A stretch of 61,630 bases of DNA, counting the filler. It is 4 parts of 4 records of this genome, joined end to end, with 100 filler letters (N's around TTAATTAATTAA, not from the genome) between each part and the next. Parts side by side here need not be neighbours in the genome. Positions count along the whole stretch, not along the records: positions 18,683 to 31,822 come from SRR20825019_1480; 3 more parts are not named here. One strand, given 5' to 3'. Positions 6,330-31,922 of the stretch are shown one piece after another (positions within the stretch are counted from its first letter, which is position 1; each line of letters opens with the position of its first letter). The notes beneath the pieces are model-generated. The model was not told the origin of the DNA and ran no database searches. It saw only the letters and a list, made by a program, of their open reading frames with translations. A program made the position numbers and the translations under genes.

Positions 6330-6345
6330 TGAAAAACACACGCCA

Positions 6346-11659: not shown

Positions 11660-11696
11660 TTAAAGTTGTTTATTTTAGACTTTTAAATCCTTAAAC

Positions 11697-12563: not shown

Positions 12564-13483
12564 TGCCTTTAAATATCAAACCCACTCTAATTTGTATAGT
12601 TGGACCTACCGCAATTGGTAAAACTGCATTATCAATTAAACTAGCCAAAGCTTTTTCTACGGAAATAATTTCGGCAGATTCAAGACAATTTTTTAAAGAA
12701 ATGACCATTGGAACCGCAGTCCCTTCTTCGGAAGAACTAGCTGAAGCTCCGCATCATTTTATTCAAAATATTAGCATTTTTGAAGCGTATTCTGTTGGAG
12801 ATTTTGAAAGAGACGCCACCCAATTTTTAAAGCATTTTTTCAATAAAAACCCTGTAGCAATTATGGTTGGTGGTTCAGGGCTATACATTGATGCTGTTGT
12901 AAAAGGCTTAGATAAATTTCCAGAAACAACTTCTGAAACAAGACTGCTTTTGAATAAAGACCTAAATGAAAAAGGTATTGAATTTCTTCAAAACGAGCTA
13001 AAAACAGCAGATCCTAACTATTTTGAAAAAGTTGATGTTTATAATCCGCATAGAGTTATTCGTGCTTTAGAGATTTATCGTGAAACAGGTAAGCCCTACT
13101 CTTCATTTCTACAACAAGAAAAAGCAGTAAGAGATTTTGAAACTATCTTCATTGGTCTCACCGCAGAAAGAAAATTAATCTATGAACGCATAAACCAACG
13201 TGTAGATGCAATGATTAATGATGGTTTGATTGAAGAAGCAAAATCTTTATATCCTCATAAAGAAAAAAATGCGTTACAAACTGTAGGCTATCGTGAATTG
13301 TTTGAATATTTTGATGGAAATCTTACTCAAGAAGAAGCCATTTCTGAAATCAAAAAAAATACGCGAAGGTTTGCCAAAAGACAAAACACTTGGTTTAAAA
13401 AAAATGAAGCAATACATTGGTTTGATTACAAAACAGATGCCGGGACAATATTCAATTTTATAAAAGAAAAAAACGCCCTTTAG
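12563..13483 (+). CDS. miaA: tRNA dimethylallyltransferase
   Basis: GPTAIGKT, SADSRQ, VGGSGLY, TRRFAKRQ.TWF. Confidence 0.97.
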   Translation: MPLNIKPTLICIVGPTAIGKTALSIKLAKAFSTEIISADSRQFFKEMTIGTAVPSSEELAEAPHHFIQNISIFEAYSVGDFERDATQFLKHFFNKNPVAIMVGGSGLYIDAVVKGLDKFPETTSETRLLLNKDLNEKGIEFLQNELKTADPNYFEKVDVYNPHRVIRALEIYRETGKPYSSFLQQEKAVRDFETIFIGLTAERKLIYERINQRVDAMINDGLIEEAKSLYPHKEKNALQTVGYRELFEYFDGNLTQEEAISEIKKNTRRFAKRQNTWFKKNEAIHWFDYKTDAGTIFNFIKEKNAL

Positions 13484-13495
13484 AGGCGTTTTTTT
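13467..13495. terminator. Bidirectional intrinsic terminator
   Basis: AAAAAAACGCC-loop-GGCGTTTTTTT between convergent genes. Confidence 0.8.
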
Positions 13496-13520
13496 ACACA
13501 TATCTTAATTTTGATAAAAA

Positions 13521-14237
13521 TTAATTATCAACTTCATCTTTCACTACCAAACGGAAGCCTTCTCCGTGAATATTGATTATTTCAACACCATCATCCTTAC
13601 TTAAGTATTTACGAAGTTTTGCTATATAAACATCCATACTTCTAGAAGTAAAATAATTGTCGTCTCTCCAAATTTTGGTAAGTGCCAATTCACGTGGCAT
13701 CAGGTCATTTTTATGAAGCGCTAAAAGACGTAACAATTCGTTTTCTTTTGGAGAAAGTTTTATTGGAGTCTCTTTGTTATAGGTTAAGAAGCGCAATTTA
13801 GAATTCAAATGAAAATTACCAACTTGAAATTCAAATTGTTTACTATCTGCAATTGAATCTGTAGCTTTACGTTGAATAATAGCTTTAATTTTCATTAAAA
13901 GCACTTCACTATCAAAGGGTTTATTCAAGTAATCATCAGCACCAACTTTATAGCCTTTAAGCACATCTTCTTTCATTGCTTTGGCAGTTAAGAAAATAAT
14001 TGGCACATCTTCATTTTTTTCTCTAATCTCTTTGGCCAATGTAAAACCGTCTTTATATGGCATCATTACATCGAGGATACAAAGATCAAAATCATCTTTT
14101 TTAAATTTTTCAAAACCTTCCATTCCATTTTTCGCGTGAGTCACGTTATAATCGTTCATGGCTAGGTAATCTTTTAATACTGTTCCGAAATTCGGATCGT
14201 CTTCAACAAGAAGGATTTTTTTGTTTTCTGTTTCCAT
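13521..14237 (-). CDS. OmpR-family response regulator (RprY-like)
   Basis: LLVEDD, LDVMMP, GADDY..KPF, winged-helix C-terminus. Confidence 0.93.
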   Translation of the reverse strand: METENKKILLVEDDPNFGTVLKDYLAMNDYNVTHAKNGMEGFEKFKKDDFDLCILDVMMPYKDGFTLAKEIREKNEDVPIIFLTAKAMKEDVLKGYKVGADDYLNKPFDSEVLLMKIKAIIQRKATDSIADSKQFEFQVGNFHLNSKLRFLTYNKETPIKLSPKENELLRLLALHKNDLMPRELALTKIWRDDNYFTSRSMDVYIAKLRKYLSKDDGVEIINIHGEGFRLVVKDEVDN

Positions 14238-14242
14238 AATTT

Positions 14243-15802
14243 TTAAGATATTAAGTGTAATTTTAGTATAAAAGTACTGCCCTTTCCTTTTTCGCTTTCC
14301 ACGTATATTTGGGCGTCGTGGTCTGCTAAAATCTGCTTAACATAAGCCAATCCAAGTCCGTGACCTTTTACGTTGTGTATATCGCCGGTATGTTCTCGGT
14401 AAAACTTATCAAATATTTTTTTCTGAACAGGTTTGCTCATTCCAATTCCCTGATCGCGTATTTTTAAAATAACACTATTCTTTACGTTTTCTGAATAAAT
14501 ATCAATTTTCGGCTCGCCTTCAGTATATTTTACTGCATTGTCTAATAAGTTGACAATTACATTTCCAAGGTGTGACTCATTAGCTAAAACGGTCGACTTG
14601 AGAGCTCCAAAATGTGTGTTTATATAACCTCCTCTATCTTCAACAATTAAACTGACATGTGATATAGAATCTTCAACAATTTCATGCAAACTAACACGCT
14701 CTTTTGGTAAATCCAGCTCATTTTTTTCAAGTTTAGAGATTCTTAATACGTTTTCCACTTGGGCGTGCATACGTTTATTTTCATCTCTAATCATTCCCAA
14801 ATATCTCGTTAAAAACTCCTGGTTGTCTTTTACTTTTGGATTTTTCAAGGAGTCTAAAGCAAGATTGATAGTTGCTATTGGTGTTTTAAATTCGTGAGTC
14901 ATATTGTTTATGAAATCACTCTTAATTTGTGAAATTTGACGTTGTTTGTATATTTGTGAAATAGCACTAGAATATGCAAGGATAATAACACTTGTAAAAA
15001 CCAACGAAAGTATTGCCATTCCTAAGATACTGTTTAATACAAATTTTTCTTTTTCTGAAAAATTTACATGAAGCTCATACCCAATTTCATTTTCATTTCC
15101 AAAAAGAGGAACCATATAGGTACTTTCAGCATTGTATTTAAATTTCTTGGAACGAACTTTCGTTTCCATATTATTACTATAAATAGCGAATTCGAATTTT
15201 GAATTTAACCCTCTTTCTTTAATTTCTCTAGCTATCAAATCAGAAATTTCAGAAGCACTTACTCTTTTATATATTGGTGTAAGGGCTGTTATGTTACTTA
15301 CAAAACTTTCAAACTGATTTTGCTCATAATCTTTCATTCTAGAAAAAGACTCTACTCTAGTTTCTGTTGTGGTTATTCCATCAATGCCTTCAGATACTTT
15401 TGTTTTGGTTTTTCTATTTGTTAGTTTTTTAAACTGAATACTATCATTCTCCGTATCAAAAAGGCCAGCAGATAATTTATAATCTTGTTCTAAAATACCA
15501 TCTGTAAAGAAATACGTTTCGTTTGTAGCTTTATTTTGAATTCTATAGGCCAACTCCGTAAAACTCACATTATCTGGCACTTGAATGCTATCTACATAAG
15601 GAACGTAAAGTTGGTAGTATTTATTTATTTCACGCAACTTAATCTCCTTTGAAACGGATAAAAGCACCTGTTTTGCGTTAATAGTAAATTGATCTGCCTT
15701 GGTTCTGTATGCGTTTGAAATCCAGTACCCCTGAACAAATACTATTCCCAATAATGAGAGGCTCATGAGCGCTATAAGCAATACGAAAAGCTTTTTGTTC
15801 AT
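14243..15802 (-). CDS. Sensor histidine kinase (RprX-like)
   Basis: Two TM segments, NMTHEFKTP H-box, NLLDNAVKY, DQGIG, GHGLGL. Confidence 0.95.
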   Translation of the reverse strand: MNKKLFVLLIALMSLSLLGIVFVQGYWISNAYRTKADQFTINAKQVLLSVSKEIKLREINKYYQLYVPYVDSIQVPDNVSFTELAYRIQNKATNETYFFTDGILEQDYKLSAGLFDTENDSIQFKKLTNRKTKTKVSEGIDGITTTETRVESFSRMKDYEQNQFESFVSNITALTPIYKRVSASEISDLIAREIKERGLNSKFEFAIYSNNMETKVRSKKFKYNAESTYMVPLFGNENEIGYELHVNFSEKEKFVLNSILGMAILSLVFTSVIILAYSSAISQIYKQRQISQIKSDFINNMTHEFKTPIATINLALDSLKNPKVKDNQEFLTRYLGMIRDENKRMHAQVENVLRISKLEKNELDLPKERVSLHEIVEDSISHVSLIVEDRGGYINTHFGALKSTVLANESHLGNVIVNLLDNAVKYTEGEPKIDIYSENVKNSVILKIRDQGIGMSKPVQKKIFDKFYREHTGDIHNVKGHGLGLAYVKQILADHDAQIYVESEKGKGSTFILKLHLIS

Positions 15803-15806
15803 ACCT

Positions 15807-15814
15807 CAAAAGTA
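15807..15814 (-). promoter_or_regulatory. Bacteroidetes -7 element (TACTTTTG) for the two-component operon
   Basis: TAnnTTTG 4 nt before the kinase ATG. Confidence 0.55.
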
Positions 15815-15874
15815 ATATTTTAACATTTAGCTACTCGTTCATTTAACCAAATGTTAACAAACAAATACCTACAT

Positions 15875-16462
15875 TTAATTAGCTTCAATTTTAAGGGTAC
15901 GATCAATAAACTTAACCGTAGCTCTGGTTTCATCTAAATCTACGTTTTCAATAACCAAATCTGCTAATTTGCGCTTTTCCGCATCAGGCCATTGATTGTT
16001 CATCCGTGCTTCAATTTCTTTTTCCGAAGTTTTATCTCTTGCTGTAACGCGAGCAAGACGAACATCTTTAGGAGCTGTAACCAATAGCACCATATCACAA
16101 TTTTTATAACTACCATTTTCGAAGAGTATGGCAGCTTCTTTAATAACATATTTACTTTTTTGCTTCGAAGCCCACTTCTTAAAATGTGCAGCAACTCTTG
16201 GGTGAATAATAGCATTTACAGCCTCTAAAAGTGCTTTATCATTGAATATTTTTGAAGCTATAAACTTTCTATTTATCACATTTTCCACATAAGTTTCTTC
16301 ACCTAGAAGTGTAATTAATTCATTGCGAATTTCGGTTGAAGAGGCCATTAGTTTTTTAGCTTCTTCATCAGCAATATAAACCGGCACTCCCAACTGAGAA
16401 AACATTTTAGCAACAGTAGTTTTTCCACTACCAATTCCTCCTGTAAGTCCAATTATTTTCAC
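15875..16462 (-). CDS. coaE: Dephospho-CoA kinase
   Basis: IGLTGGIGSGKTT, IIHP.V, EAAILFE. Confidence 0.96.
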   Translation of the reverse strand: MKIIGLTGGIGSGKTTVAKMFSQLGVPVYIADEEAKKLMASSTEIRNELITLLGEETYVENVINRKFIASKIFNDKALLEAVNAIIHPRVAAHFKKWASKQKSKYVIKEAAILFENGSYKNCDMVLLVTAPKDVRLARVTARDKTSEKEIEARMNNQWPDAEKRKLADLVIENVDLDETRATVKFIDRTLKIEAN

Positions 16463-16489
16463 ACTAATTTTTTATTGAAGATTGAATTA

Positions 16490-17443
16490 TTATTTGAATA
16501 TAAAGAAATCAATTTTTTTAGGTTCAAAAACCACATTTCTGATGTGTTCGGGTTTCTTTTCTAATAACGGAAGCATAAAATTATCTTCTTGATTTCTTTG
16601 TGAATAATCACAAACCAATCTAAAGCTTTCGCTTGAAATTTCTGTGAAGTCTTTTACAGAAACATCAAAAGAAATAGAAACAGACTGCGGCACCAGTTTA
16701 ATGTCAATATTTGGCGGTAAGTTTATAACCTCAACCGGTAAAATAAATTGTTCTTGTGAAAACTCCGCCACAGTCAAATGTACGGCCACTTTTTTTGGGG
16801 CTACAGAAACAATTCCGTTACCAACGTTCGAAACATTTATTTCTTTAGAAATATTTTTCTCAACATTTCTAAAGGAAATAAGTTCAGTTTCAATAGTTGT
16901 AATGTTTTTTAAGCTTCCCGAGGGCCCTGAAATTAATACTGAATCAGGTTTTATTTGTATACTGTCTTCAGGCTTAAATCCGTCTTTAAATGTAATATCG
17001 GTTTTTGCAATTACACGCACTTTTTTTAACACAATTGGGTCTAACTTTACATTCAATTCATCAATTGAAAGATTTTTTATAGCCAGGTTTCTATTAAAAC
17101 TAGAGGAAACTAAACGCATTAATTCGTTTTTGCTAATTGTAAAGCCACCTTTTTCTTCAGTATAATATTGACTCACCTCTAAAGAAACTTTTGGTTTTTT
17201 AAATTTATAAAAAAGTATTTCAAACCCATTTGCGGTAAGATCAAATGTAATTTCATTTTCGTTATTTATGGAAAGGGCTGCAGATTCAGGAATATTTTCA
17301 TATTCAATTTTTGCTACCATGGTAGCGGTAAATTCCCTACTAAATTTAGTTAAAACCCAAAATATAGTAGCCAAAAACAGGAAAAGTAAAAATCGTTTTA
17401 CTTTTGTATTTTTAATATTTTTGAAAAAGTCCTTCTTCATCAT
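16490..17443 (-). CDS. YbbR/CdaR-like membrane-anchored protein
   Basis: N-terminal TM helix then repeated beta domains (PDSV.ISGP); position next to coaE. Confidence 0.75.
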   Translation of the reverse strand: MMKKDFFKNIKNTKVKRFLLFLFLATIFWVLTKFSREFTATMVAKIEYENIPESAALSINNENEITFDLTANGFEILFYKFKKPKVSLEVSQYYTEEKGGFTISKNELMRLVSSSFNRNLAIKNLSIDELNVKLDPIVLKKVRVIAKTDITFKDGFKPEDSIQIKPDSVLISGPSGSLKNITTIETELISFRNVEKNISKEINVSNVGNGIVSVAPKKVAVHLTVAEFSQEQFILPVEVINLPPNIDIKLVPQSVSISFDVSVKDFTEISSESFRLVCDYSQRNQEDNFMLPLLEKKPEHIRNVVFEPKKIDFFIFK

Positions 17444-17465
17444 TTTTGTTTGAAAGTCAATAAAA

Positions 17466-18467
17466 TTAACTAAAAAATAAGGAGGGAAATTGTTTCTGTG
17501 GATCTTTCTTTAAAAGAGCGATATAATAACTAGATTTTAGAAAAGCCAGACCGTAACCAAAAAACTGTACAAAAACCGCCGCTATTGAAAGCAATCCAAT
17601 ATAAACACTTTTGTTTTTAATAGTAGCGTCTACAAACACCAACCCTAAATAAAACAAAAGCGGCACCAACGCCATGGGAGTTAGTAGAAAATAGAAAAAA
17701 ATAGATGTTAAAGTAAAAAAAACAAATAGTGTTGGAAACCAATAGGTTATTTTTGAAGATGTAGGATGCCATTTGTTTAAAATTGGTCTAACAAGACCAA
17801 ATTTTTTAACTTGAATGTAAAATTTTTCCCATGAAATTCGTCTTTTATGATACACAAAAGCATTTGGTAAAAAAGTTGTTTTATATCCTTCTTTTAAAAT
17901 TCGTTGTGAAAGATCAGGGTCTTCCCCGGGGTGGATTTTAGCAAAGCCTGAAGTTTTTTCAAATACTTCTTTTGAAATACCCATATTAAAACTTCTGGGC
18001 TCAAACCGATTTATGCTATTTTTATTTCCTCGAATTCCACCGGTAGTAAAAAATGAGGTCATAGTATAGTTAATGGCTTTTTGCAAAGGCGTAAAACTAG
18101 CATGAGCGGCGTCTGCACCGCCAAAACAGTGATAAAATGTATTTCTTAAAAATGAATTTACTGTTTTTAAATAATGTGTTGGTAGTATACAATCTGAATC
18201 CAGAATTATAAAATAATCTCCTTTTGCACGTTTCATTCCATAATTACGTGAATCTCCAGGGCCTGAATTTTCTTTAAAATAATATGATATTGAAAGTCTA
18301 TTACTATATTCATTGACTATCGTTTCAGATTTTATAGTAGAACCATCTTCTACCAATACTATTTCAAAATCTTCATCAAATTCAAGATTTGTAAAACTAT
18401 CTAAAAGCTCTCTAACTTCCAGAGGACGGTTGTATACTGGAATTACAAAGGAAAAGTTGATTTTCAT
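17466..18467 (-). CDS. Glycosyltransferase family 2
   Basis: FVIPVYNRP, VEDGS, GPG.SRN.G, LDSD, GEDPDL, C-terminal TMs. Confidence 0.93.
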   Translation of the reverse strand: MKINFSFVIPVYNRPLEVRELLDSFTNLEFDEDFEIVLVEDGSTIKSETIVNEYSNRLSISYYFKENSGPGDSRNYGMKRAKGDYFIILDSDCILPTHYLKTVNSFLRNTFYHCFGGADAAHASFTPLQKAINYTMTSFFTTGGIRGNKNSINRFEPRSFNMGISKEVFEKTSGFAKIHPGEDPDLSQRILKEGYKTTFLPNAFVYHKRRISWEKFYIQVKKFGLVRPILNKWHPTSSKITYWFPTLFVFFTLTSIFFYFLLTPMALVPLLFYLGLVFVDATIKNKSVYIGLLSIAAVFVQFFGYGLAFLKSSYYIALLKKDPQKQFPSLFFS

Positions 18468-18486
18468 AATGCAAAGTTAGTTAAAT

Positions 18487-18519
18487 AAAAAAAGCCATCC
18501 ACTTTCGCGGATGGCTTTT
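18487..18519 (-). terminator. Intrinsic terminator
   Basis: AAAAGCCATCC-loop-GGATGGCTTTT stem with A/T tracts, downstream of the 18538 stop. Confidence 0.8.
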
Positions 18520-18537
18520 CGGCTTCAACTAAAATAA

Positions 18538-18582
18538 TTAATTCTTCAATATTTTAAAAGTACCAGTCTGACCATCTACAGT
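18538..18582 (-). CDS. 3' end of a probable T9SS type-A CTD protein (truncated)
   Basis: Minus strand reads TVDGQTGTFKILKN*, typical T9SS sorting-signal ending. Confidence 0.6.
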   Translation of the reverse strand, partial: TVDGQTGTFKILKN

Positions 18583-18682
18583 NNNNNNNNNNNNNNNNNN
18601 NNNNNNNNNNNNNNNNNNNNNNNNNNTTAATTAATTAANNNNNNNNNNNNNNNNNNNNNNNNNNNNNNNNNNNNNNNNNNNN
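18583..18682. other. Artificial contig linker
   Basis: N-run flanking TTAATTAATTAA (stops in all six frames). Confidence 0.99.
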
Positions 18683-19362
18683 CGTGTACTAGGACCGTTA
18701 GGACACCCCCTATCCGAGAGTCCATTCTAGACCCGGAACTAGGGAGCAGTCTCGCATACCGTTTCAAGATCACAGTCATCAGTTGACTTCGTATGGGCCC
18801 GGCCACCACGGTCCGATCGGAGCTTATTCACCTGGATCGTTGGATTGTCACGTGAGCCCGGGGATATTCTCTAATCAATCTCCCTATAGACTCGGAGCTT
18901 TTGGTGACATCTAATGGGGCCTAAGGGCATTCCAAGGTCTCCTTCGGTACTCATCCGACAGCCTGATCAAGCCCAGAATAGTCAGAATTTAAGACCACTG
19001 ACACTTCCACAGCGTCGCTTCGGACCAGTACGGTGACCCGCCGGGGGCTCGGCTGTCGTGCGTGCCCTCAGGGACTTCGCGGCTGATGGTCGCCAACTGA
19101 CTGGTGGCAGTCTTGTTACTGGTAGTGTGCCCTCTATTCTGTCCACTGAGCGAGCACTGGTGCTGGCAGAGCCATCCGCCTTGGTGCGCCTCGGCACTGC
19201 CAAACCGTGTCCAAGGACTGAACTTCGTTCGGGCCATAGTGTCATGCTTTCTAGCTGACCTTACACTCCTAGCCGGAGGCCGGGGACTTTGGCCGACAAA
19301 CATGCTTGCGAAACGGAACTTCATGGTTCCACCAAAGGCTTCTTCCGCGACAAGTGGCTCAG

Positions 19363-19375
19363 TATATAAATAAAA
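19363..19375 (+). promoter_or_regulatory. TATA-box-like element
   Basis: TATATAAATAAAA about 60 nt upstream of ATG 19435. Confidence 0.45.
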
Positions 19376-19434
19376 GTTTGCGCTCCACATTTGCAATGTT
19401 CAGACGACTTCTGAGTCAACAACAACAAACAAAT

Positions 19435-20343
19435 ATGTCCGAACAATACAATAACTTCAACAGTGATTTGTACCTGAGTAATGAACTGCCTAAGGATGGC
19501 CCAAAGCCTTACTCACGCTACAACCTTGTCAGAGGCATCGTCAACGTGGTCACCTTCGTGGTGCTTATTTTGATGAACTACGTTGCTGCGGCGTATGGTT
19601 TCTGGGGTGGAAAGACAAATGCTGAGATTGCCAATGAATACATGACTTACTTTACTCCTGCCGGATACGCCTTTTCAATCTGGGGCCTCATCTACACTAT
19701 GTGGGGCCTCTTTTCCGTATACACGGTTGTGTGCAACCGTGACTCCGCTGCTCATGAGGGCGTTGGGTGGCTTTTTGTGGCAATGTCTGCCGCCAACTCG
19801 CTTTGGTTGGTTGCATTTGCATTTGAAGTGTTCTGGCTGAGCACCATTCTTATGTTTACCTACTTTGGGTTGCTTATTGTAATGTATGTTCGCCTCAACC
19901 ACCTTGAGTCCAAGCATGGCCGCTTCTCTGTTCTTCAGCGTGTGTTCGTCAAGTTCACGGTTTCTCTCCAGATTGGTTGGATTAACGCCGCAAGCATTGC
20001 GCAGCTGTGCATTCAGGTGGTGTCATTCGACAAGTCATACATGGAGGAGTTTTGGGGTATCAGTGGGCAGACCTGGTCCGCAGGAACATCCTGCGCAGTG
20101 TATGTCATCGCTGTGATTGTTCTTGCTACCAACCGTGATATCACCTGGGCTATGGTGTTGGCTTGGGCTGTATTTGCTGTTGCGAAGCGCTTTGAGGATG
20201 TCCGCACCGTCGAGTTTGCCGCGCACTGTTCTGGAGCTGCCATTACTGCTAGCTGCATTATGGTCGCTCTTTTGTACTTCCGTAAGAACAAGGACTCAAG
20301 AGCCACCAGCCCCGTGAAGGAGCTCTGCACCCCTCTCGTCTAA
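19435..20343 (+). CDS. Multi-pass membrane protein, TspO-like / tryptophan-rich sensory protein family; intronless
   Basis: FTPAGYAFSIWGLIY motif, about 8 hydrophobic helices, A-rich context before ATG, AATAAA near 20408. Confidence 0.7.
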   Translation: MSEQYNNFNSDLYLSNELPKDGPKPYSRYNLVRGIVNVVTFVVLILMNYVAAAYGFWGGKTNAEIANEYMTYFTPAGYAFSIWGLIYTMWGLFSVYTVVCNRDSAAHEGVGWLFVAMSAANSLWLVAFAFEVFWLSTILMFTYFGLLIVMYVRLNHLESKHGRFSVLQRVFVKFTVSLQIGWINAASIAQLCIQVVSFDKSYMEEFWGISGQTWSAGTSCAVYVIAVIVLATNRDITWAMVLAWAVFAVAKRFEDVRTVEFAAHCSGAAITASCIMVALLYFRKNKDSRATSPVKELCTPLV

Positions 20344-21082
20344 GGGCTTTACAAGAAGCATCAGTGAACTCTCAAGAAAATTTTCCAGCGTGCTCTCAGA
20401 TGAGTTCAATAAATCCCTCAATACATTTCGCTTGGGTTCAGGCTCTGGACTAGAGGTGGCGCTGTGTGGTCCGATTCTGGAGTCACGCCTCCAAAACGGC
20501 TTTAGTTACCCGGCATGTGCCGAGATGTGAGATATGAACCAAAAACGCAAAGACGCCCAATCGTTCTTTACTGTATTATATATAGTAGCACATCGTATAC
20601 ACAAGATACATGTTTAACCTTGCATAACTCCAAAAAGGTTAACCACTCTGACGAGGGTATCTTTTTACACTGAGGACTCGACCAACCAGCCGGACCGCCG
20701 GGAGCTGCCCCCGGGCGCGGCTCGCCCCCGGCGCCGGGCCGCCGCCCACTGTCAGCCGCGCCTCACTCAGTCACGCAGTGCCGCCCCCGGCCCGCCCCGG
20801 CCGCCCCAGTCCGCGCGGACGGCCCCCGGGTGAGTCGTCCCGGCCAAGGAGTCCGGTGCGGGCTCCTGGATGGTGGACGGTGCCAGTGACCAAACCCGCC
20901 GGTCGACCGGACCGGCCAAGTGACCGTACATGTGGTCGGTCCACACAGAACCGCTACAGGTCGGTCTGGCTGGAAGTTAGGGCCAGCTGGCCACTGCTGA
21001 GCGGCCAAAGCTTCCTTTATTCCCACTCTGCAGGTTTATGTATTGCATGGTAGCCCGGGTATGTGGAGGATAAGCAGGAACT

Positions 21083-22390
21083 ATGTCTGACGCTGAGGAA
21101 CTTTTTGGTGTTCGGAACCACTTCTTTATGGGCAACTACCAGCAGGCCATTAGCGAGAGCTACTCGGTCCACACGGTGAGGCCTAGAGAAACAACTTTTT
21201 TATGATTGGACTCTCACCATCAACAGACAAATGAGAATGTCAAGAACGAGAAAGCTGCCTTCGTTTACCGTGCACAAGTGTATGTCGGCCTTGAACCCTA
21301 CTGAGCTACGACCACTTACTTGGCCTTGCTTGCAGAGCTTTAGGAAATCATCAGCTGGTTATCAACGAAGTCAACGAAAGCTCTCCTGTTCAGCTGCAGG
21401 CAGCCAAGCTTCTTGCAACATACACGAGCGATCCTGCCAATAAGGAAATTGCTATCATTACTTTGAAGGAGTGGTTGAACGTATGGTTTCTGTGAAGGGA
21501 TATGATAGTATTTGACTTGTTTGGCAGGATCCTGTAGCGGCGAACAACCCAACACTCGCTGCCATTGCGTGCACCATTTATATGAGGGAAGAGGACTACG
21601 AGAGTGCACTAAAGTGTGTTCACCAAGGGACTACACTGGAGATGTATGTATCCAAACAGCGACCTTATTTCGTTTGTGTTGATGAGTCTAATCTTGTTGC
21701 AGGCTTGCGCTCTCTATCCAGGTATTCTTGAAGATAAATCGCCTTGATCTCGCACAGAAGCAACTTGCGACGATGGCAAAGCAGGAGGATGATGCTCCAT
21801 TGACACAGCTGGCAGGAGCATGGTTGGCGCTTGCCCAGGGGGGCTCAAAGGTAGGTAATGCTTGTCGATGTTGTTGATAGTGTGACGGCCGAGTTCGTTG
21901 TATGTTTGGAGGCGTTGGTAGCGTGCGGGGGGCACGGGCTCAGCCTTGTTTGCTTCTAGGCCATGGATGCACACTACACATACCAGGAACTGGCAGAGAA
22001 GTACGACGATGCTCTTCCTCTCTTGAATGGTAACGCTGTTGCGCTGACTCAGCTGAAGAAGTATGACGAAGCGGAGCAGGTATGGATTTGATGTGTGTGC
22101 ATTACGTGCTGCTGAACTGAACACTGTGCAGGTATTGATGAAGGCCCTCGGAAAGGCGCCTACCGATGCGGATACGCTCTTCAACCTTGTCGTATGTTTG
22201 CAACATGCGCGCAAGCCTGCCGAGGTAGTCAACAGATTCTTGGGACAGCTTAAGGTAACAGTGGTGCCTTTGGTCGTTGTGGATGTACTGAGGTGCTCTT
22301 CAGAATGCCCTTCCAGACCATCCTTACGTGCGTAGGATGAATGAGCTTGACTCGGCTTTCCTCTCCGCAAAGAATCAGATTCAGGTGTGA
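21083..22390 (+). CDS. COPE: Coatomer subunit epsilon, 8 exons (21083-21175, 21227-21279, 21336-21480, 21528-21643, 21703-21850, 21960-22079, 22132-22254, 22304-22390), 294 aa
   Basis: Spliced product MSDAEELFGVRNHFFMGNYQQAISE..YRAQVALG..KEWLND..LTQLAGAWLALAQGG..PDHPYV; all introns GT-AG and frame-consistent. Confidence 0.92.
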
Positions 22391-23336
22391 AAGACGCGAG
22401 ATCTCACTGCCCGTAATGTGTAAAGATGCTACGGGAAGATCTATGCCATGAGTAATCTTATCTTGGGTTGGGTCGAGAGGGGCGGAGAGATTGTTTGGAA
22501 TATTGAGATGTCAAGGTTGGCCGTTTTCAGAAGCATTGGGAAGCTGAATGCTTGGTGCAGTCGAGGTTAAGAATCCCGTATAAGTGTATCCGAGTCACCT
22601 CCGTTCTGGTGATGAAATCAGTAGGCCGTTCGTGCTCACACACAGCTTACTGTACGCATGTCGCGTGGAACAAAGTAGACTCTGGGAACATGCATTTTGG
22701 AGGCCGGTTCCTCCAAAGGCAGCGTGGGCGCTCCTCGAGAAGCCCATATGGAGTACTATACGAAACCTTTCAGCTGACGATGCTCGGGCCAGTAAATCCG
22801 AGGCTAGCAAACTTGTTAGTTCCGGTCCTGAGAGCCACACCCGCTGCCCCCCCCCGCTGCAGCGGCTATTGGCCCTGAGCGTACCAGTACAACTGGCGTC
22901 ACGGTCGCGGCGGGCACCCCACCGGGCCGGTTGAGTCATCAGTCCTGGCGGGTGACCGGCCCGGGCCCCCACGGGGCGCTGGGCTCCGCCCGGACTGCTG
23001 CGGCACGGCTCAGTCCGCTGAGCCGGAGACCGGACTGCCGCGTGCCCCGGGGGCCGGGCCGGCCGGGCGAAGCGCCTGCCATCCGATCGGCGGCGGGCCC
23101 GGAGCTCACACCGGGCCACCCCAGCCGGCCGGCACGCACCGCGCTGCTCCCGTCTGACCTCAGCCTGCCGCCGGGACTGCCGCCTGGCGCTCACATGGCG
23201 CGCCACTCGCACGCTAAGTTATCCGCCCCGGGGGCAAAGCCCGGTGTGTTCAGGCGGCCGCGCCGGTCAGCGCTTCATTTCGTGTACGTATATCCACTTC
23301 AGGCTACACTATTCAACGCGAGTCCCGTGAAAAACC

Positions 23337-25501
23337 ATGTCATTCCTCGGGCTAGGCAAAAAGAAAAACCGAAAGCTCAGCTCTGATGTCAGTCGGGCAC
23401 AGATTCACGAAGTGCTTTTGAGAACACTGGGTATACTGCACGCACCTTCGTTCAGAAGTAAGTGTGAGCTGACTACTGTAGTGATGCTCCTAAAGTTCTA
23501 TTACAGAAAATGTATTCGAAGCGTCGGAAAAGGCCGGAGAGGAAAATAGTGACAATGCTATCCAGGCGCTCATAGAAAAAGAACAGCGTGCATTCATTGA
23601 GGATATGGGCCTTGCGCCGGAAAGTGAGTTCCTTATCAGTGATTTTAGTGTTCACTTCGGTGCTGACGTCGAATTGCAGGGGTCTTTGATGTACTTAAAG
23701 AGGTCCCAACGAAATACCGCGCAGACCAAGGCATGATTCGTCTTCTACGGCGGGTGGCGGACGAGGAAGTCGCTCTAGTTGTAAAGGCAAAGCTTGCGTT
23801 CGACCCCAGCCGCCAGGCGGAGAGCTCGAAGCATGAAACATGTACGCACTTATATTACAACACTTTCTCCATCTGTCTCAAGTGCGCCATAGGAGACAAG
23901 AAGGGTAAGCCAAGTCTTTGGAAACCATCTAAGGTGCTCACATTTCATCAGGATTTCGGTGGCAGGAAACCCCGGCGGTGGTGCAGCGTGAGGGTGACAA
24001 TGTGTGGTTGATCAAAAAGTGCAAAACTCACGGTGAAGAACGGGTGCTGTACTGCTCGAGTGTTGCGTTTTTTGAGCGGGTCCTGTCGTATACAACATCC
24101 GTAACCAACGGCGCCCCCGTGCGAATCTCTCCTGAGCACATTTCTCCGAGCTCCGGGACAGCGTCAGGCGGGCGCCCGCCGCTACAAAAGGGAAATACGG
24201 GGGGGTCTTGCGGAAACGGAGGCGAGGGCTCAGGTGAAGCTGTGAAGGTGCCACAGCAGGGCACAAGTGCGGGTGTTAAGGCACATCCGCACCACCGGCC
24301 TGCTCCGGAACCATTCTCGGACATCGCAGATCTGGAAGATTTAAGGGGTCGCTGCCACATGAAGAGTAGCCAGCAGGACTTCATGCGGCCGTTGGTTGCT
24401 GAGCTGAAGGTGTTTAGAGATGGATTTGCGAGCGAGGACGAGATCCGCGGAAAGGTGCAGAGCATCGTGCGAAACTATCCGGAGGGACAGCAGTTTGTGC
24501 TGAGGGTGAATGCGGGGCTGGCAGACGACATGAATGTTCTCAACAGCCGCCTCAAGTTTGTGGACAAGATCCTGCCGGATGGGCCCATGTTACTGGAGGC
24601 GTCCTTCGAACGCCTGATCATGCTCAGTCGACTTCCGGACACAGTCCTCTTCAACACGCGAGTGTACCCTGGAATCAGGTACTTTGTTGAAGCAGGAGCA
24701 ACAGACATGGCGCTTAGGGAGCTGAGAGACGCGGTGGCGGGCCTGAAGACTATAAGTGACATCCAGATCATGGTAACACTGTGCATTGACCGCCCGTTCC
24801 CTGACCTTAGCGTGATCCTTTCCTTCCTAAGATCTGAGGTGGGCTTTGTTCGGGGTATTGTCATTTCACCGGAGAGGTCGCCCAAGCAATTGGTGGAGGA
24901 GAGCATGAAGGTGGGATCCTCCATTAGCTCGTCCGTTGACCCCTACGATCTCCTTCTACACATCCAAGAATGGACGTCGCGCGATGGTGCACACGCGCCC
25001 ATTATGACATCAGATTTCACGCCTCTTCGGGTCTTTACTGTCTTCGAGCCTTTTCTCAAGGCCCTGGGCTACGGGAACTACAAGGTGCGGCCTTCACCAT
25101 ACTGCGGATTCTGTGTAGGCCTTATCAATACCAAATCACATCGGTCCAAGCCCGTTACGCAGTACGCCAATCTAGATAGGCTATACAGCAGTCTGCTGCC
25201 GCTCCTACCCCAGTTGGCTAAGATCAACCCCCTCAAACTATGGACCATGGTTGCCGTCAGAAAAATTGTATCTCAATCGTTGCATGCTGGGATGTCTAAC
25301 ATTGATTTCTTTTCGTATATGGTGGACAAATCCAAGCAACAGAAGGTCATACGTTTCCTTCGAGCCACGCAGTTCCTGGTCGTGCATAATAACATGGACA
25401 TTGGCAGTGTGGACATGCTGAGGCGATGCGAATGTCTCACGATTACCAATTCCTCCGTTGATGCCAACAGTGTCGCCGCGACATGTACGGGTTGTGTATA
25501 G
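23337..25501 (+). CDS. Tes/GDGT-MAS (MJ0619)-like protein lacking the radical-SAM motif; 4 exons (23337-23457, 23507-23623, 23680-23904, 23952-25501), about 670 aa
   Basis: Frame-consistent GT-AG introns; SICLKC..VWLIKKCKTHG, FVRGIVISP, DFTP, PSPYCG, HNNMD..DMLRRCEC, ATC blocks. Confidence 0.65.
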
Positions 25502-25531
25502 GTCTGTACACGAGGCCTCGACAGCCCATTC

Positions 25532-27794
25532 TCATGGAAGCACAAACTCTGGCGCGCTAGCCCTCAATACGGTCCTGGATGACGCATCTGCGTTGGTATC
25601 CACACCCGAGGTTGGCTCCGGGCTGTGCTTCGGTTCGCTGGCAGGGAGTGGCCCGGGAGCATTCTTCTCTGCTTTTTCGTGCTCTTCCTGCCTTTCCGCG
25701 AGCCTCTTTTGATCAATAGTCCACTGCTCACGAGCATCGAGGGCAAGAGAGTGGCACGACCTGAAATGACATCGTCAGATTAAACCACAAATACCACACC
25801 CTTTGCACTCACTTGAACACTTCGTGTGCACCATCGTAATTGAATATGGCGACGCAACTTATCCTTATAGTCTTGCCTAGAGCTCTTCCAAGGTTATTCC
25901 TGCTTAGGGCATATATCACGGCGATGTCATTCTCTTCAGCCTGCTCAATAATGCCTTCCACAAAGTCATTCAGTCCACCCTCGACATCACATTCCTCGAT
26001 GTTGTAGGCGACAATGAGTGCCTTGGCTCGCTTATTCTTGATAGCGCGCTTTACCTCGCGCAGCCCGCACACGTAGCGCCGCTTCATCTTGAACTTCATT
26101 GGTTCATTTGCCCGCACACGCTCCTGGAACTTCGTCAAGAGCTCCAACAACTCAGCGGCCTTCTTGTTTATGTCATCCGTAACTTTTTGGTTCACATAAG
26201 CACGTAGCCTGCGCTTGGCGGGCTTTGGTACATTCATTCGTTTCTGGATCTCCTGGATTTCACCCGTCTGTACTGCAACATCTACCATCTTGGGTTTCTT
26301 TCCCTTCACTTGAACCACCCGTCTGCTCTCTGATTCGCCCGGACCGACTTCACTGCTGCTGCCATCTGCACCCTCGGCACCGTCTTCATCATCATGCCCA
26401 TCATTCTCATCACCTTCATTGACGGATTCATCTGAGCCAGAACTTTCCACGTCGTCATCCATCTCCTCTTCATCGCCTGATGCCGCTCCAAATTCATTCC
26501 TGTCGCTCTTTCGCTTCTCGATTTCCGCCTTCCAGTTAAGGTATACAATCGAATCTTCTCCGTCACGTTGGCGGAGGAACTCCAAATACTGGGCTTCTCT
26601 GTGCTCCAAAATCACTCTCTTCATTCTGGATGGCTTCTTGACCTTGGTCTTTTCGCGTTCTTTTCCACGGGTCTGCCGGCGCTGATTAAGGCCCACAACA
26701 TCTGCCAAGGGGACCTTTCCCTTCGTTCGGTCGCGTGGTTCAACACCTGCCTTCGCCGAGGGCGCACCAACATATGGAACAAATGTGCCTACAACGACCT
26801 TCTGGTTCGATGCATTCTGGGATTCTTTCTTACTGGGAATCATCTTCACATTGAATAGTTCACCAAAATGGAACTGCCCTTTCTTCTTGTTCTTGGAGGG
26901 CTGGGCCGACGCAGGTGCCGCTGGCTTGGATTCAATGGACGCATTCTGCTTCGAACGGCCCTTCGCGCTGCCGGCAGTGGCCTCTACTAGTGTTGGACCT
27001 GCAAGAGCTAATGATGCCGTGGGCTTGGTCGAATCCGGAGGAGGATTTTCGGTGGAATCCGTCTCCGCCTTCGCTGCGGTATCGGCACCCTGATGGGTTT
27101 CGTTAGACCCTTTCAACCTATCGGCCCATGACATGGGCTTGGAAACAGAGGGTGCGGGCTCCGAAGGCTTGTCGGTGCCCGTGGTGGGCATTTCCCCGCC
27201 CACCTTTTCCTTCTTTGCTGGCTCCGCAACAGCCTTTGCATCTTTGTGCTTCGATACCCAAGCCCGATATTCTTCCCTCTGCTTCCATACGCCAACCGAA
27301 CCACCGCCAGGTCCACGAGCCGCCTCATTTCTACTAACCGATTCATGGGCAGCACTTGCAGACCCTGGCTTCCCTTTTCCTTGTGCCTTTCCTTGTGATG
27401 TAGCAGGATCCGGTTTCTCTCTGCCACCTAGTTTTGCATCATCCGGCTTAGCCGTCTGCTCCTTATTTTTTAACAGCGCTGTAGCAAATGAAACGGGGCC
27501 AGCAGCAGTGGCGGAGGCTGCTGGGGGTGCATCAGCACCTACACCGTTCTCTTCCTTGTTCTGTGCGCCCGCCTTACGGGACCTCCTTGTCCGCTTGCGC
27601 TTCTTCGCTTGCTCTCCAGTACCTTCTTCATCGCCTTCTGTAACAACGGGCTTTGCAGCCTCTATGGGCTGCACAGGCTGTTCGCTTTTCTTCTTATTCC
27701 TCCTCCTCCTTTGAGACTCGCGGACAGGAAAGTCGTCATCTCCACCGACACCCTTGTCAATTAACACAACCTCTGTCACTTGCCCGCTGGCCAT
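25532..27794 (-). CDS. SECISBP2: SECIS-binding protein 2 (SBP2 family); intron 25761-25812
   Basis: K-rich SID motif RGKERE..K.KKPSRMKRVIL, then L7Ae domain KRRYVCGLREV..GGL....IIE.A..ALSR..LGRAL..NYDGA. Confidence 0.88.
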
Positions 27795-28652
27795 GAGGAA
27801 CTGGTTCAACAAGTTATGGCTACTGAACACGCATATAAGTTGGTATGGCGCACGATGCTGACTTTTTCCGACGAAGAAGCGCTGAAACACACGACCACCC
27901 GCAAGGGCTACAGTGCACCACCCGCTTCCCCGATACCATGACAAAGACACCGACACCGCTCGCCCGTGCAATCGGACCGTGCCGCCCCGGACCGGCCGGC
28001 CCAGCGCTGGCGGCGGGCGGGGCGGCGGGCCGGACGGTGCCACCAGCCGGGCCGGCCACTCGCTGACGCCGCGCGGGCCGGGATTGACCTAGCCCCCCCC
28101 CCGGGACGAATCCCGGGGAGTCGGAGTCCCCCCCCCAGTCGACCAAGCGGCGGTCCGGCGCTCACTGACCCGGCTGGGCTGTTGGGGCTGGCGCCCGGCC
28201 CGAGGCCGGCCGGGCTCATCGCCGAGAGTCCCGAGGGCCCGCGGCTGGCGGCCCGTCACTCAGTGGCAGCCGCCATCATCGGCCGGACCGACCGGGGCCC
28301 AGCATTGAATCATCGATACTTATAGTTGGTACCAAGTCTGTATTTGCAGTATACGATACTTAAGGGCCGGGCTCCGGTTGGGCCACCAGTCGTCGGACAG
28401 GTTCCAGGATCGAGAACTAACTGCACTGGCTGGTCTCATCCTCTTGACGAAGACGAGTCCAGCCCTTCGTGGCCACGGATCACAGGCCCTAGGATCACAG
28501 TGGTTTGTCGAACGGTTTTGGAACCGTCAGGTGGAGAGCCAGTCAGACACGAAGCCGCCAATTTTCTTCCACCTCTTGGCGAGTAGTGACACTGTTGTCT
28601 TTATGTAATTGTATTACTACGAACATCTCAAAGTTTGCTGCGTTTTGCAAAG

Positions 28653-29828
28653 ATGGGTAACTTGTCAGGGAAGAAAGGAGAGGTGCATTTATCTGCTCAG
28701 CCTATTGCGCACCCTGGTGATCCTTCTGCTGACCCTACAGCTCCGGTTGGTACTCTTGAAGACTGCCACAAGGCTGGTGGGTGCGTTTTGAAAGCTGTCA
28801 TTGCACATGGAATGAAGTCTGTTTTCCAGGGAAAATGCGATTTGTGTGTGTCTCAGACACTCATAACCTTGCAGATAAACTTGAGATGCCTCCTGGAGAT
28901 GTTCTGCTTCATGGTATCTACTGTTTCTCCGGTGCTCGACGTCTCCTTATTGATTTTGGATGTTAGCTGGGGACTGGAGCAACACTGGAGTGTTGGACGA
29001 TGTCAAACAGTTTAATGACTGGCTGGGGACGTTGTCATACAAATACAAGATCGTTATTGCAGGTGTGGTATTGAATGTTTGATAAAAATGTGGCTTACCG
29101 CTATGTAGGAAACCACGACCTACCTTTCGATCCAGAAGGCTATGAGAAGAGGTGGTCTAGGTTTCACAAAGTTAAACAGGATCCAAAAGCTTGCAAGGCT
29201 GCTCTGACAAACTGCATTTATCTCGAGGATGAAGAATACGTGATTGAGAACCGTGTCAAGGTGTATGGTTCACCATGGCAACCTGAATTCTGTGGTATGT
29301 CCACTTGTCCTTGCATATGGACTTGCTTTAAGATCCAGCTTAGATTGGGCTTTCAACCTGCCCCGAGGAGCCCCCCTCAAGAAATACTGGGACAAGATTC
29401 CCGCCGACACGAGTATGTCTAGCAGAGCTTTGCCAGTGCCACTTGTGCCGCTCTAATCCACTCCTGAAGATGTACTCCTTACACATGGCCCGCCATGGGG
29501 AAACCATGGAGGTGTCACTTATAGCGGATTTGACGCCGGCTGTGAAGAGCTTCTTCTCGCTATCCAAAGGTTTGCGTCAATATATTGTGTTTTACTATGT
29601 GGCCTCACACAATGTACTCTTCGACTAGGATTAAACCCCAGGTTCATGTGTATGGACACATACACGAGGGGGCAGGAACAACATGGGAAGGACCGGTGAG
29701 TGGACTCAACACGTTTGGCATTAAGGAGGGTCCCATACCAACCAAACTACCAGACCAAATGCATCAATGCATCCAACTGCACATTGCAGTACCAGCCTGA
29801 CAACCCTCCGATCGTATTCGATATGTAA
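28653..29828 (+). CDS. Metallophosphoesterase, MPPED1/2 (239FB) family; multi-exon
   Basis: Spliced motifs RFVCVSDTH, VLLHAGD, VIAGNHD, YGSPWQP, WAFNLPRG, LLTHGPP, HVYGHIHEG, INAS. Confidence 0.9.
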
Positions 29829-29885
29829 TCTAGTGTGTTCCGCAGCGTCCATGCAGCAACGATTCCCGCGCATGGGCGTTGAATG

Positions 29886-31665
29886 TTACTTAAACCTACC
29901 AAACTGGTTTGCCTGTGCTCTTTTTGCGGCCACTATGTCCCGTGGAGTAGGGTCCTTATTGGTTGGCATTTCCACGAAATTAGTGGTTCTTCGCTGCCTC
30001 CTGGGGAGGTTGTTCCTAGGCCTATCCGTTTTGGGACCAGGCCTCACTGCAGGCGGTGCCTGTTGACCTATAGATGGCCGCGCCGATTCGTGCCGTGGAC
30101 CCTGATACTCAGATGAGCCGTCACTATGAATCGGACCTTGGAAGTTCAGGGCTGGCATCCCGCCTTGGTTCGAGATGAGGTTCTCCAAAGCAAGCTCCCC
30201 CTCCATCTCACCCAGGGTCATCCCTTCCACATCAGTGTGCAACTCCAGATTGTTCAGTCTTTGCAGCGTTCCATCCAATTCTCTATTTAGGGTTGCCGCC
30301 GACTGGAACACGTCCATCACACGCTGGAAGCGCTCTTCGCCAAAGCGAGCCTCCTCAGTCTTCCTGACCACCTTGCCTATCCAGTCCTTAATCCGCTTTA
30401 CCTCATCCTGCCGCTCTGTGCAATCACACCTGTATCAGACACCTACAAAATTGGGACACTAAATCATCTCACCCTGAACTTGTGTATGCATCAGCTTAAG
30501 CCCAGCCATTGCTCGCAGGGCTTTCCGTTCGCTCTCCTCAAGCTTTTCTTGCAAATGGTGCATGCTTTCCTGGTGCTGGTTTTTCTCCCAAGCAGCATTT
30601 TGTTCCAGTCTCTGGATCTGGAAGATGTATGTCGGCCCCCAGTCCTTCAGATTGTAACCATTTCACCTGGCTTACCTGCATTTCACTTGCCAATCGCTCC
30701 CGTTGCTGAATTGCAGCAACTTCATTCCGCATCTTGGTTACTTCGACCCTAAGCTTAATGTTTTCCTCCTGAAGAGCCTTAAATGCCGGGTGTGCCCTAT
30801 CTTCTTTCGACAAGTGCACCGGAACTGAGTGCTCAACCCGAGGCTGCAGTGTGCTTTGCGGGAATGAATGGAGACCCGTGAAATTGGGCAAGTTACTGTA
30901 CAAGGCACCGGGAACCTGCTGAGGAGAAGACGCGAATCCAACTTCCGCCGCTGCGTTATTCCCATACATGCTCTGTTGCATGTATGGCCCGACTTCGTTG
31001 GCGTGGTTGTATCCGACGGCCGGGGTCTGAAACGCCGCACCGGCTGATTGGAATGTTGCATTGGTAGTGCCACCGATATTCATCGGAGGCACGCCAAACG
31101 ACGTCAGCTGAACTTGCTCAGTGGGCAAGTATTGATTTGCAAGGGATTTCTCTGGGTAAACGGATTGTGCGGGAGCCAGCCCCCGAGGTGACACATATCC
31201 TCCCCCGGACTCAGGCACTGTCGGTGGTGACGCCCTTGCGTATCCTGAGGGCGCCTTCTCCGACTTTCCGGTGCTCGAGGCAGCATAGCCGCCGCGGTTA
31301 GCACTCTGCGTGACAGCTGGTGGCGATGCAAAGAACTCAGACGCCCGCGGAGTCGTAAGTTCAGCGACACCAGGACCACTTGCCGATACACCTGCACGTG
31401 CATACCCAACCACGGGTTTGTTGTTCCTCAATCCAGACACCGGAGGCTCAGCTACCTTCTTGGCTTTCAGTTGCCGCAGCGCCTGCGGGGGTACAGACAA
31501 CGGCTTCGGCGACCCTTTCGGGGGCTGCGCCCCCAATGGACTCTTCTTTGCAGTAGGGGCTGTCTTTCGGGACTCGGTGCCTCCAGTTGCCTCTGCTGCA
31601 GGAACAACCTTCAATCTCGGCAAGCGAGAGGGTGGGGGTTCCTTCGCGCCAATGTTGGGAGGCAT
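29886..31665 (-). CDS. Hypothetical protein: Pro/Ser-rich N-terminus plus coiled-coil C-terminal half; about 3 exons
   Basis: ORFs 30538-31665 and 29886-30371 can be joined through GT-AG introns near 30615-30675 and 30430-30470; heptad-rich exon IQRLEQNAAWEKNQHQESMHHLQEKLEESE. Confidence 0.6.
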
Positions 31666-31822
31666 TGTGTGGCCGGCCTCCTACCGCGGTCGTAAAGAGG
31701 GGAGACGACGTCTAGCTTAGATTCTGCCAAATTGATTTCTTGTACTCGAATAGGAACAAAGGTGGAATAGAGTGCAGCGTCTGTAAGACTCACGACGAGT
31801 GAGGCCAGGCACCCCCGCACTG

Positions 31823-31922
31823 NNNNNNNNNNNNNNNNNNNNNNNNNNNNNNNNNNNNNNNNNNNNTTAATTAATTAANNNNNNNNNNNNNNNNNNNNNN
31901 NNNNNNNNNNNNNNNNNNNNNN
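31823..31922. other. Artificial contig linker
   Basis: N-run with TTAATTAATTAA. Confidence 0.99.

Follow-up and report, generated by a model that had tools for sequence, protein, structure and literature searches.

Is there a eukaryotic relative of the archaeal tetraether lipid synthase (Tes, or GDGT-MAS), and, if so, what is left of the enzyme in it? The question is raised by a gene on the plus strand of the 61,630-nucleotide stretch of DNA analyzed here (the window), which consists of contigs joined end to end; the gene occupies positions 23337-25501, inside the second contig (SRR20825019_1480). Tes/GDGT-MAS has been known only since 2022 and is considered a hallmark of the membrane-spanning lipids of archaea and of some bacteria. 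A sequence-only reading of this locus had proposed that three short GT-AG introns, once removed, leave an open reading frame (ORF) of about 670 amino acids, and that its product is a Tes homolog, domesticated in a protist and radical dead. When the four exons are joined, a frame of 670 amino acids plus stop codon (2013 nucleotides) without an internal stop is indeed obtained, and it is the product of this frame that we refer to as the window protein.

Homology to tetraether lipid synthase

Remote homology searches and structural models used exon 4 (residues 156-670; window positions 23954-25498, plus strand) and exon 3 as separate queries. Exon 4 matched the Pfam family PF23545, Zn_ribbon_HMPTM ("HMPTM N-terminal zinc ribbon"), with an E value of 1.7e-7 (31.1 bits against a cut-off of 27), and the first ~50 positions of the NCBIfam Tes profile NF045702 with an E value of 2.7e-7 (29.6 bits, which fails the curated 450-bit cut-off). 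A single-sequence phmmer search with exon 4 against the chains in PDB gave no match (best E value, 0.54); among PDB sequences, GDGT-MAS was reached only with a profile of the family. This profile, taken from an alignment of the window protein with 39 relatives (alignment A1, 40 sequences), matched the GDGT-MAS chain 7tol_A (PDB 7TOL) with an E value of 9.1e-20, and the match was collinear: profile positions 20-84 fell on chain residues 22-91, and positions 303-481 on chain residues 309-491 (domain E value, 4.4e-12). Taken singly, 37 of the 40 proteins matched NF045702 (best E value, 5.1e-23) and 9 matched the profile of the radical SAM (S-adenosylmethionine) (seleno)protein TrsS, NF045646 (best E value, 1.1e-6). 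One bona fide Tes, P0156, was recovered as well (508.3 bits against the cut-off of 450), with CX3CX2C at residue 133 and CPxDCGxC at residue 108, and hhalign aligned the family to it over the C-terminal domain with a probability of 97.3. The family search found Tes above the cut-off in 3 of 14 control genomes.

An AlphaFold2 model of exon 4 had a predicted local distance difference test (pLDDT) score of 80.5 and a predicted template modeling score of 0.81, with disorder only at model residues 50-140. In a Foldseek search with this model, the two GDGT-MAS structures stood on top (7TOL, E value of 2.2e-14; 7TOM, 5e-13), and every other hit had an E value of at least 3.8e-4. VIA-align superposed the model on 7TOL and 7TOM with a Z score of 24.4 and a root mean square deviation of 4.0 over 399 to 400 residues, pairing model residues 1-512 with chain residues 11-471; the next neighbors were MoaA (Z score, 11.8), viperin (10.3), and AbmM, TigE, and SuiB (about 9.6 to 10.0). 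The model of a complete homolog from Hemimastix, P0003, was more confident (pLDDT, 89.9) and matched GDGT-MAS end to end, with a Z score of 30.1 over 420 of 457 residues. Across the two models, GDGT-MAS was followed by MoaA, viperin, SuiB, AbmM, TigE, and ChlB at Z scores of 9.5 to 13. An ESM feature search also pointed to Radical_SAM clusters (0.92), which we take as a lead only. Since the structural match runs from end to end and is joined by the profile match, we conclude that the window protein is a full-length evolutionary relative of Tes/GDGT-MAS, not a protein that happens to share a zinc knuckle; the homology proposed in the sequence-only reading therefore stands. The two proteins (for Tes, MJ0619; 7TOL and 7TOM; NF045702) have in common a collinear, full-length fold and the same order of domains, namely a knuckle, a partial TIM barrel, and a C-terminal cluster domain.

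Metal ligands kept and lost

As far as the accessible text of Lloyd 2022 (PMC9433317) goes, GDGT-MAS holds four cofactors: a rubredoxin-type iron, bound by C9-x2-C12-x20-C33-x2-H36; an N-terminal [4Fe-4S] cluster, whose ligands are C73, C77, C80, and a His; the radical-SAM cluster, with its CX3CX2C motif; and a C-terminal [4Fe-4S] cluster that has Met439 as a labile ligand and enters into a C-S bond with the substrate. Among 1000 archaeal homologs, Met439 and Tyr459 are described there as "completely conserved." Residue numbers in the PDB chain are the native numbers plus 20, which we checked by placing C29/C32 on C9/C12, M459 on Met439, and Y479 on Tyr459.

The N-terminal knuckle is retained as C145-x2-C148-x29-C178-x2-H181, and the cysteine pair aligns to chain C29/C32 (native C9/C12). 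Its second half, Cys178-x2-His181-Gly, lies at positions 23952-24060 (plus strand), carries the PF23545 match, and aligns to the C9-x2-C12...C33-x2-H36 region of GDGT-MAS. The CxxC column is nearly invariant across the family; the loop between the pairs is 29 residues long in the window protein, against 20 in Tes.

Both sets of ligands for the next two clusters are gone. The place of the N-terminal [4Fe-4S] domain of Tes is occupied by a linker rich in Gly, Ser, and Pro (24101-24331, plus strand; residues ~205-281), of ~80 residues in the window protein, variable in length across the family and without a conserved Cys. The sequence-only reading had placed such an insert at the site of the lost motifs, and residues ~205-280 are predicted to be disordered (pLDDT, 32 to 48). 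The N-terminal auxiliary cluster's motif, CPxDCGxC, is not present in the spliced protein, and no conserved Cys lies between knuckle and barrel. The linker closes with an acidic motif, D-x-E-D-L (residues 281-285, ~24329-24343; D281, E283, and D284), which is conserved in 30 to 37 of the 40 aligned proteins. No Tes counterpart of this motif was noted; it could be a short docking motif or pack on the barrel.

The barrel itself (24374-24913, plus strand; residues ~296-475) is a degenerate version of the radical-SAM partial (beta/alpha)6 barrel, with six beta-alpha units modeled at pLDDT above 90 and no conserved cysteine at all. CX3CX2C occurs in none of 159 family proteins and is present in the Tes control P0156. 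Pfam Radical_SAM (PF04055) likewise matched neither the window protein nor any of 75 family members. A hidden exon supplying CX3CX2C, the caveat that the sequence-only reading had attached to its claim, was ruled out: the motif is found in no plus-strand frame of the 13.1-kb contig, and the contig's two matches both fall on the minus strand, beyond the bounds of the gene. Because the ligand sets of both [4Fe-4S] clusters are missing, radical-SAM chemistry, that is, reductive cleavage of SAM and radical coupling of lipid tails, is excluded as judged from the ligands. The radical-dead half of the earlier claim thus holds, and "pseudoenzyme" is a status that we presume for the protein.

The C-terminal domain, of the auxiliary-cluster type, extends from 24938 to 25501 with the stop codon (plus strand; residues ~484-670) and bears DFxP, RPSPxCG, HNxMD...D..RRCxC, and a terminal C-T-G-C-V. 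With Tes, the window protein shares the Cys-x2-Cys...Cys-x2-His knuckle and, in this domain, DFxP, P-x-C-G, xMD...D..R..C, and a late Cys; every motif named in the sequence-only reading, from the N-terminal site to the terminal ATCTGC, is present in the spliced protein. In the alignment, C539, C649, and C666 stand opposite native Cys338, Cys455, and Cys470, and each is conserved in 36 to 38 of the 40 proteins. The metal ligands said to have been kept are thus conserved columns in both the knuckle and this domain, and metal binding at two sites is likely on that evidence. The column of Met439 is different: it holds His in 39 of 40 (His633 in the window protein). An additional terminal Cys, Cys669, is found in 38 of 40, forming an extra CxxC, and the protein ends one residue after it. 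The Tyr459 column is variable in the family and holds Thr653 in the window protein. Among the other residues that are invariant or nearly so are N352, R375, R463, and D484 in the barrel and D637, D642, R645, and R646 in the C-terminal domain.

A family spread across protists

When 1.84 billion representatives were searched exhaustively with HMMER, 251 relatives came up at E values up to 1e-3, 152 up to 1e-10, and 82 up to 1e-30. The top homologs reached 3e-95, and the best relative is 41% identical to the window protein. Members with species names come from 11 protists, Hemimastix kukwesjijk, Dermamoeba algensis, Cavenderia fasciculata (XP_004350726, "hypothetical protein DFA_11780"), Planoprotostelium fungivorum, Naegleria gruberi, Entosiphon sulcatum, Ploeotia vitrea, Rhodelphis marinus, Pterocystis sp., Lotharella oceanica (labeled "FYVE-type domain-containing protein"), and Amorphochlora amoebiformis; these species span Amoebozoa, Discoba, Hemimastigophora, Archaeplastida, Haptista, and Rhizaria. 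Identity between distant named protists, such as Hemimastix and Dermamoeba, is 35 to 40%. This large family is confined to eukaryotes, among which it seems to be missing from animals, fungi, and plants. Since the top 150 relatives all lack CX3CX2C, the loss marks the whole family and is, by this motif count, not local to the protist of the window. Of the claim that the gene had been domesticated in a protist, the eukaryotic, intron-bearing nature of the gene is thus upheld; the event is not one of a single protist. A prokaryotic derivation of the family is plausible from a comparison that includes one bona fide Tes.

Pfam domains were scanned in 75 of the 79 proteins of at least 400 amino acids (P0001 and P0151-P0153 were left out). 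An N-terminal FYVE domain was found in 14 of these (12 above the Pfam cut-off) and an N-terminal PX domain in 6, so that 20 of 75, about a quarter, carry one or the other. FYVE and PX domains read phosphatidylinositol 3-phosphate (PI3P), a phosphoinositide, on endosomes and phagosomes. Two of the 75, P0028 and P0046, have an insert after the barrel that matches GOLD_2 (Golgi dynamics) weakly (26.7 and 28.8 bits; cut-off, 28.4); this GOLD_2-like insert adds to FYVE and PX a third kind of membrane-traffic module.

A FastTree phylogeny of 72 rows (71 family members and P0156) took its root from the one Tes branch, which is very long (3.5 changes per column), and that root is not to be trusted; the tree omits family proteins shorter than 430 amino acids, the cluster duplicates P0151-P0153, P0157, P0159, and P0161, and the long proteins P0079 and P0124. 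The window protein fell in a mostly FYVE-less clade of 48 rows (support, 98), in a polytomy with Hemimastix, Cavenderia, Pterocystis, and Dermamoeba, and a FYVE-rich clade held 18 rows (support, 95).

Database labels of the members are "hypothetical," "predicted protein," and "FYVE-type domain-containing protein," along with single metagenome labels of "acyl carrier protein" and [quoted passage not shown] A 49-amino-acid "hypothetical protein [Escherichia coli]" (WP_175566211.1, P0158) clusters at 90% identity with the 562-amino-acid member P0023 and most likely got into an E. coli assembly as a eukaryotic contaminant.

Proposed function and alternatives

We propose that the window protein is a non-radical, metal-binding, lipid-binding endomembrane protein, and we put the probability of this full statement at about 0.6. 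Its parts are not equally secure: our confidence is high for those with direct support (fold, loss of the clusters, retention of the ligand columns, and domain fusions in paralogs); lipid binding on endomembranes is the tentative part, to which we give somewhat less than even odds. The protein would be a cytosolic, peripherally membrane-associated metalloprotein. Its C-terminal site would still hold a metal center, either an Fe-S cluster or zinc, now fully ligated by three Cys plus His or by four Cys, and the hydrophobic pockets derived from Tes would still accept lipid chains. It would then act as a lipid-binding, lipid-transfer, or lipid-sensing module on endomembranes, to which the FYVE and PX paralogs would be recruited via PI3P and the window protein through either its N-terminal extension or a partner.

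Several points weigh against this proposal. In exons 3 and 4 of the window protein, which follow the 79 residues of exons 1 and 2, Pfam found neither FYVE nor PX. The central ~220 residues, which form the barrel, gave no sequence alignment to Tes by hhalign or by hmmsearch --max; an alignment by hidden Markov model was impossible there, and coverage of the barrel, including the VRGIVISP block that the sequence-only reading had paired with one in Tes, comes from the structural alignment only. The equivalence of C539, C649, and C666 to Cys338, Cys455, and Cys470 is a matter of alignment plus inference, and it is from this that we take the three cysteines to be putative cluster ligands, as in GDGT-MAS. 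Two further elements of the proposal are presumptions: the conserved Cys and His residues would come together at a single site, and the lipid pockets would persist. Finally, the near-invariant N352, R375, R463, and D484 of the barrel are not obviously needed by a passive binder; these polar residues may mark a catalytic site or a site for a lipid head group.

The same residues speak for the main alternative, that the protein is still an enzyme, in which the C-terminal Fe-S/His center and the polar residues of the barrel would carry out non-radical chemistry on lipids or isoprenoids without SAM, such as hydration/dehydration, isomerization, or sulfur transfer. All eight polar residues listed above are near-invariant across very distant eukaryotes, identities of 35 to 40% among distant protists indicate strong constraint, and the C-terminal cluster of GDGT-MAS takes a direct part in the chemistry, according to the accessible text of Lloyd 2022 (PMC9433317). 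Yet it is the labile Met439 site that leaves the cluster of Tes open, and His together with Cys669 would close it; moreover, the column of Tyr459 is free to vary, and no known reaction can be assigned. We therefore consider a surviving enzyme unlikely, if worth keeping in mind.

The domain fusions could also be read to mean that the protein is a zinc-stabilized scaffold or adaptor of membrane traffic, in which the old active site no longer binds lipid and the fold serves as a structural platform. FYVE, PX, and GOLD-like fusions are typical of trafficking adaptors, and we infer that the conserved D-x-E-D-L motif in the flexible linker could bind a protein. Against a mere platform, conservation is spread over the barrel and the C-terminal domain and does not form one surface patch, and all Tes domains but one have been kept from end to end, which suggests that the internal architecture matters; we regard this alternative as improbable. 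As for how the gene came to be there, the closest characterized relatives are prokaryotic, as they would be if a single protist had recently acquired it by horizontal transfer from an archaeon or bacterium and let it decay, but this is very improbable for a gene with 251 family representatives, 11 named protist species, 150 motif-less top relatives, a best identity of just 41%, and introns of the spliceosomal type.

Comparison with known systems

The window protein is built on the scaffold of Tes and is not itself a Tes. Relative to Tes, it differs in having neither CX3CX2C nor a cluster of the C73/C77/C80 type, in the change of Met439 to His and the lack of conservation at Tyr459, and in its longer knuckle loop and its C-terminus one residue past the extra CxxC; it is also eukaryotic and intron bearing, with relatives that are often fused to FYVE or PX. 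To judge from the available part of their description (PMC13459092), membrane-spanning lipid synthases (Mss) and Tes homologs of bacteria fall into the same clade of lipid-coupling radical-SAM enzymes; they are active radical-SAM enzymes with cluster motifs, unlike the window family, from which they are set apart here by description. TrsS has the N-terminal knuckle and the barrel family in common with the window protein; it is a weaker match than Tes and, unlike the window family, retains its radical-SAM cluster. TIGR04347, by its name a "pseudo-SAM/SPASM protein," sets a precedent for naming a radical-SAM fold without a cluster; it is prokaryotic, of the SPASM type, and its C-terminal domain is unrelated to that of the window protein. 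Endosomal FYVE and PX proteins share their N-terminal module with the 20 family members noted above, and full-text literature searches turned up no protein described as combining FYVE or PX with a body of the Tes type.

Gene model and host contig

All four exons lie on the plus strand. Exon 1 (23337-23457; residues 1-40, then phase 1) starts at ATG 23337, the first ATG downstream of an in-frame stop, and ends at the donor GTAAGT at 23458. Intron 1 (23458-23506; 49 nucleotides, GTAAGT...ACAG, with CTGAC inside) is followed by exon 2 (23507-23623; residues ~41-79), whose frame stays open on joining, and by intron 2 (23624-23679; 56 nucleotides, GTGAGT...GCAG, again with CTGAC inside). Exon 3 (23680-23904; residues ~80-154) ends with Cys145-x2-Cys148 (codons from 23874), the leading half of the rubredoxin-type zinc ribbon, and intron 3 (23905-23951; 47 nucleotides, GTAAGC...TCAG, with CTCAC inside) separates it from exon 4 (23952-25501), which runs from the second half of the ribbon to the stop codon and is by itself an open frame of 522 codons. 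The GC content of introns 1 to 3 is 41 to 45%, against 47 to 54% in the exons, and all acceptors are CAG. Removal of intron 3 reproduces exactly the junction string that the sequence-only reading had quoted, and this string is uninterrupted in intron-free homologs such as P0001; the halves of the zinc ribbon being contiguous there, intron 3 is supported by homology. Exons 1 and 2 and introns 1 and 2 are placed from splice signals only, the first ~130 residues having no counterpart in any homolog, and translation may possibly start instead at Met98 within exon 3. The claim of three introns thus has homology behind its third and splice signals behind the others.

That the gene is an artefact, whether through wrong splicing of the model, as a pseudogene, or through a chimeric assembly, is hardly conceivable: the window does concatenate unrelated contigs, and introns 1 and 2 lack backing by homology, but the gene lies inside one contig, has a 522-codon exon 4, a confident model, and homologs at E values of 3e-95, and regains a conserved domain when intron 3 is removed.

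A convergent neighbor on the minus strand has a 52-nucleotide intron at 25761-25812 (GTGAGT...CTGAC...TTTCAG), the removal of which keeps the frame open for ~94 further codons to a stop near 25531; introns of ~50 nucleotides are therefore the local style. All four introns on the contig, this one included, are 47 to 56 nucleotides long and have CTGAC or CTCAC ~20 to 30 nucleotides before the CAG acceptor, a candidate branch-point consensus of the source organism. The neighbor (25531-28088, minus strand) encodes a long low-complexity protein with a C-terminal domain of the L7Ae/L30e type (Pfam E value, 1.1e-11), and its stop codon is only ~30 bp from that of the Tes-like gene. Once spliced, its product has a ...APEF..P-type tail that we take to resemble the PAM2 motif, which binds the poly(A)-binding protein.

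Contig 2 (18683-31822) is eukaryotic, with a GC content of ~50 to 55%, sparse ORFs, and GC-rich spacers. Contig 1 (1-18582), at 29 to 37% GC, has dense ORFs with families of the Bacteroidota type (DUF5686, a CarboxypepD_reg domain, a histidine kinase, and a GT2 glycosyltransferase), and contig 3 (31923-61630), at 27 to 37% GC, encodes EF-Tu, SecY, and a UvrD-like helicase, the EF-Tu being at most 79% identical to that of proteobacterial genomes. The junctions at 18583-18682 and 31823-31922 are runs of N around a spacer with stops in all frames, TTAATTAATTAA; a eukaryotic island in a bacterial genome is thereby ruled out. The Tes-like gene lies wholly within contig 2, and the bacterial flanks are therefore uninformative about it. 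The source has the look of a mixed assembly or bin, perhaps of a protist with associated bacteria.

The other 14 ORFs of at least 90 amino acids on contig 2 had no Pfam match, nor did two larger ORFs, and neither Rfam families nor tRNAs were found on this contig. Intergenic GC at 20600-20899, 22700-23299, and 27800-28399 is 66 to 74%, against ~47 to 55% in the genes, the opposite of the usual pattern, and long ORFs in these GC-rich spacers (22595-23218, minus strand; 22832-23386, plus strand) are probably compositional artefacts. The start of contig 3 (31923-31950), just upstream of the EF-Tu gene, resembles the 3' end of a tRNA (T-arm and acceptor end); ARAGORN made no call there, as expected if the tRNA is truncated.

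Origin and significance

No description of a eukaryotic Tes relative was found in the full-text literature, a search whose reach did not extend to subscription journals and supplements, so that one may be in print. Eukaryotic relatives go unmentioned in the accessible portions of Zeng 2022, Lloyd 2022, Sahonero-Canavesi 2022, Chen 2025, and a 2026 Nat Prod Rep review, and likewise in those of a 2026 Nature paper on Asgard contributions. As far as its available text shows, Chen 2025 (PMC12042123) reports that most Asgard lineages carry tes and that most Heimdallarchaeia and Hodarchaeia are without it, and infers from this distribution that the ancestor of eukaryotes had a bilayer membrane.

One reading of the family that we find doubtful is that it dates to the last eukaryotic common ancestor as a relic of the tetraether synthase that the archaeal ancestor (of Asgard type) possessed. 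As eukaryotes abandoned archaeal lipids, this enzyme would have lost its radical-SAM machinery and found a new use as a module that contains metal and handles lipids in the PI3P endosomal/phagosomal system. If this were true, the archaeal parent of eukaryotes would still have had tes, contrary to the inference in the accessible part of Chen 2025 (PMC12042123), and eukaryotes would keep a molecular fossil of the lipid transition.

Whatever its age, this is a new protein family for eukaryotic endomembrane biology, and the FYVE and PX fusions make its localization testable. Cavenderia, a dictyostelid, and Naegleria gruberi are culturable amoebae that are amenable to genetics, and the members present in both are possible experimental entry points. 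The family is also a natural experiment in which a radical enzyme with four cofactors was turned into something else, and the phylogeny of the gene bears directly on the replacement of the archaeal membrane during eukaryogenesis.

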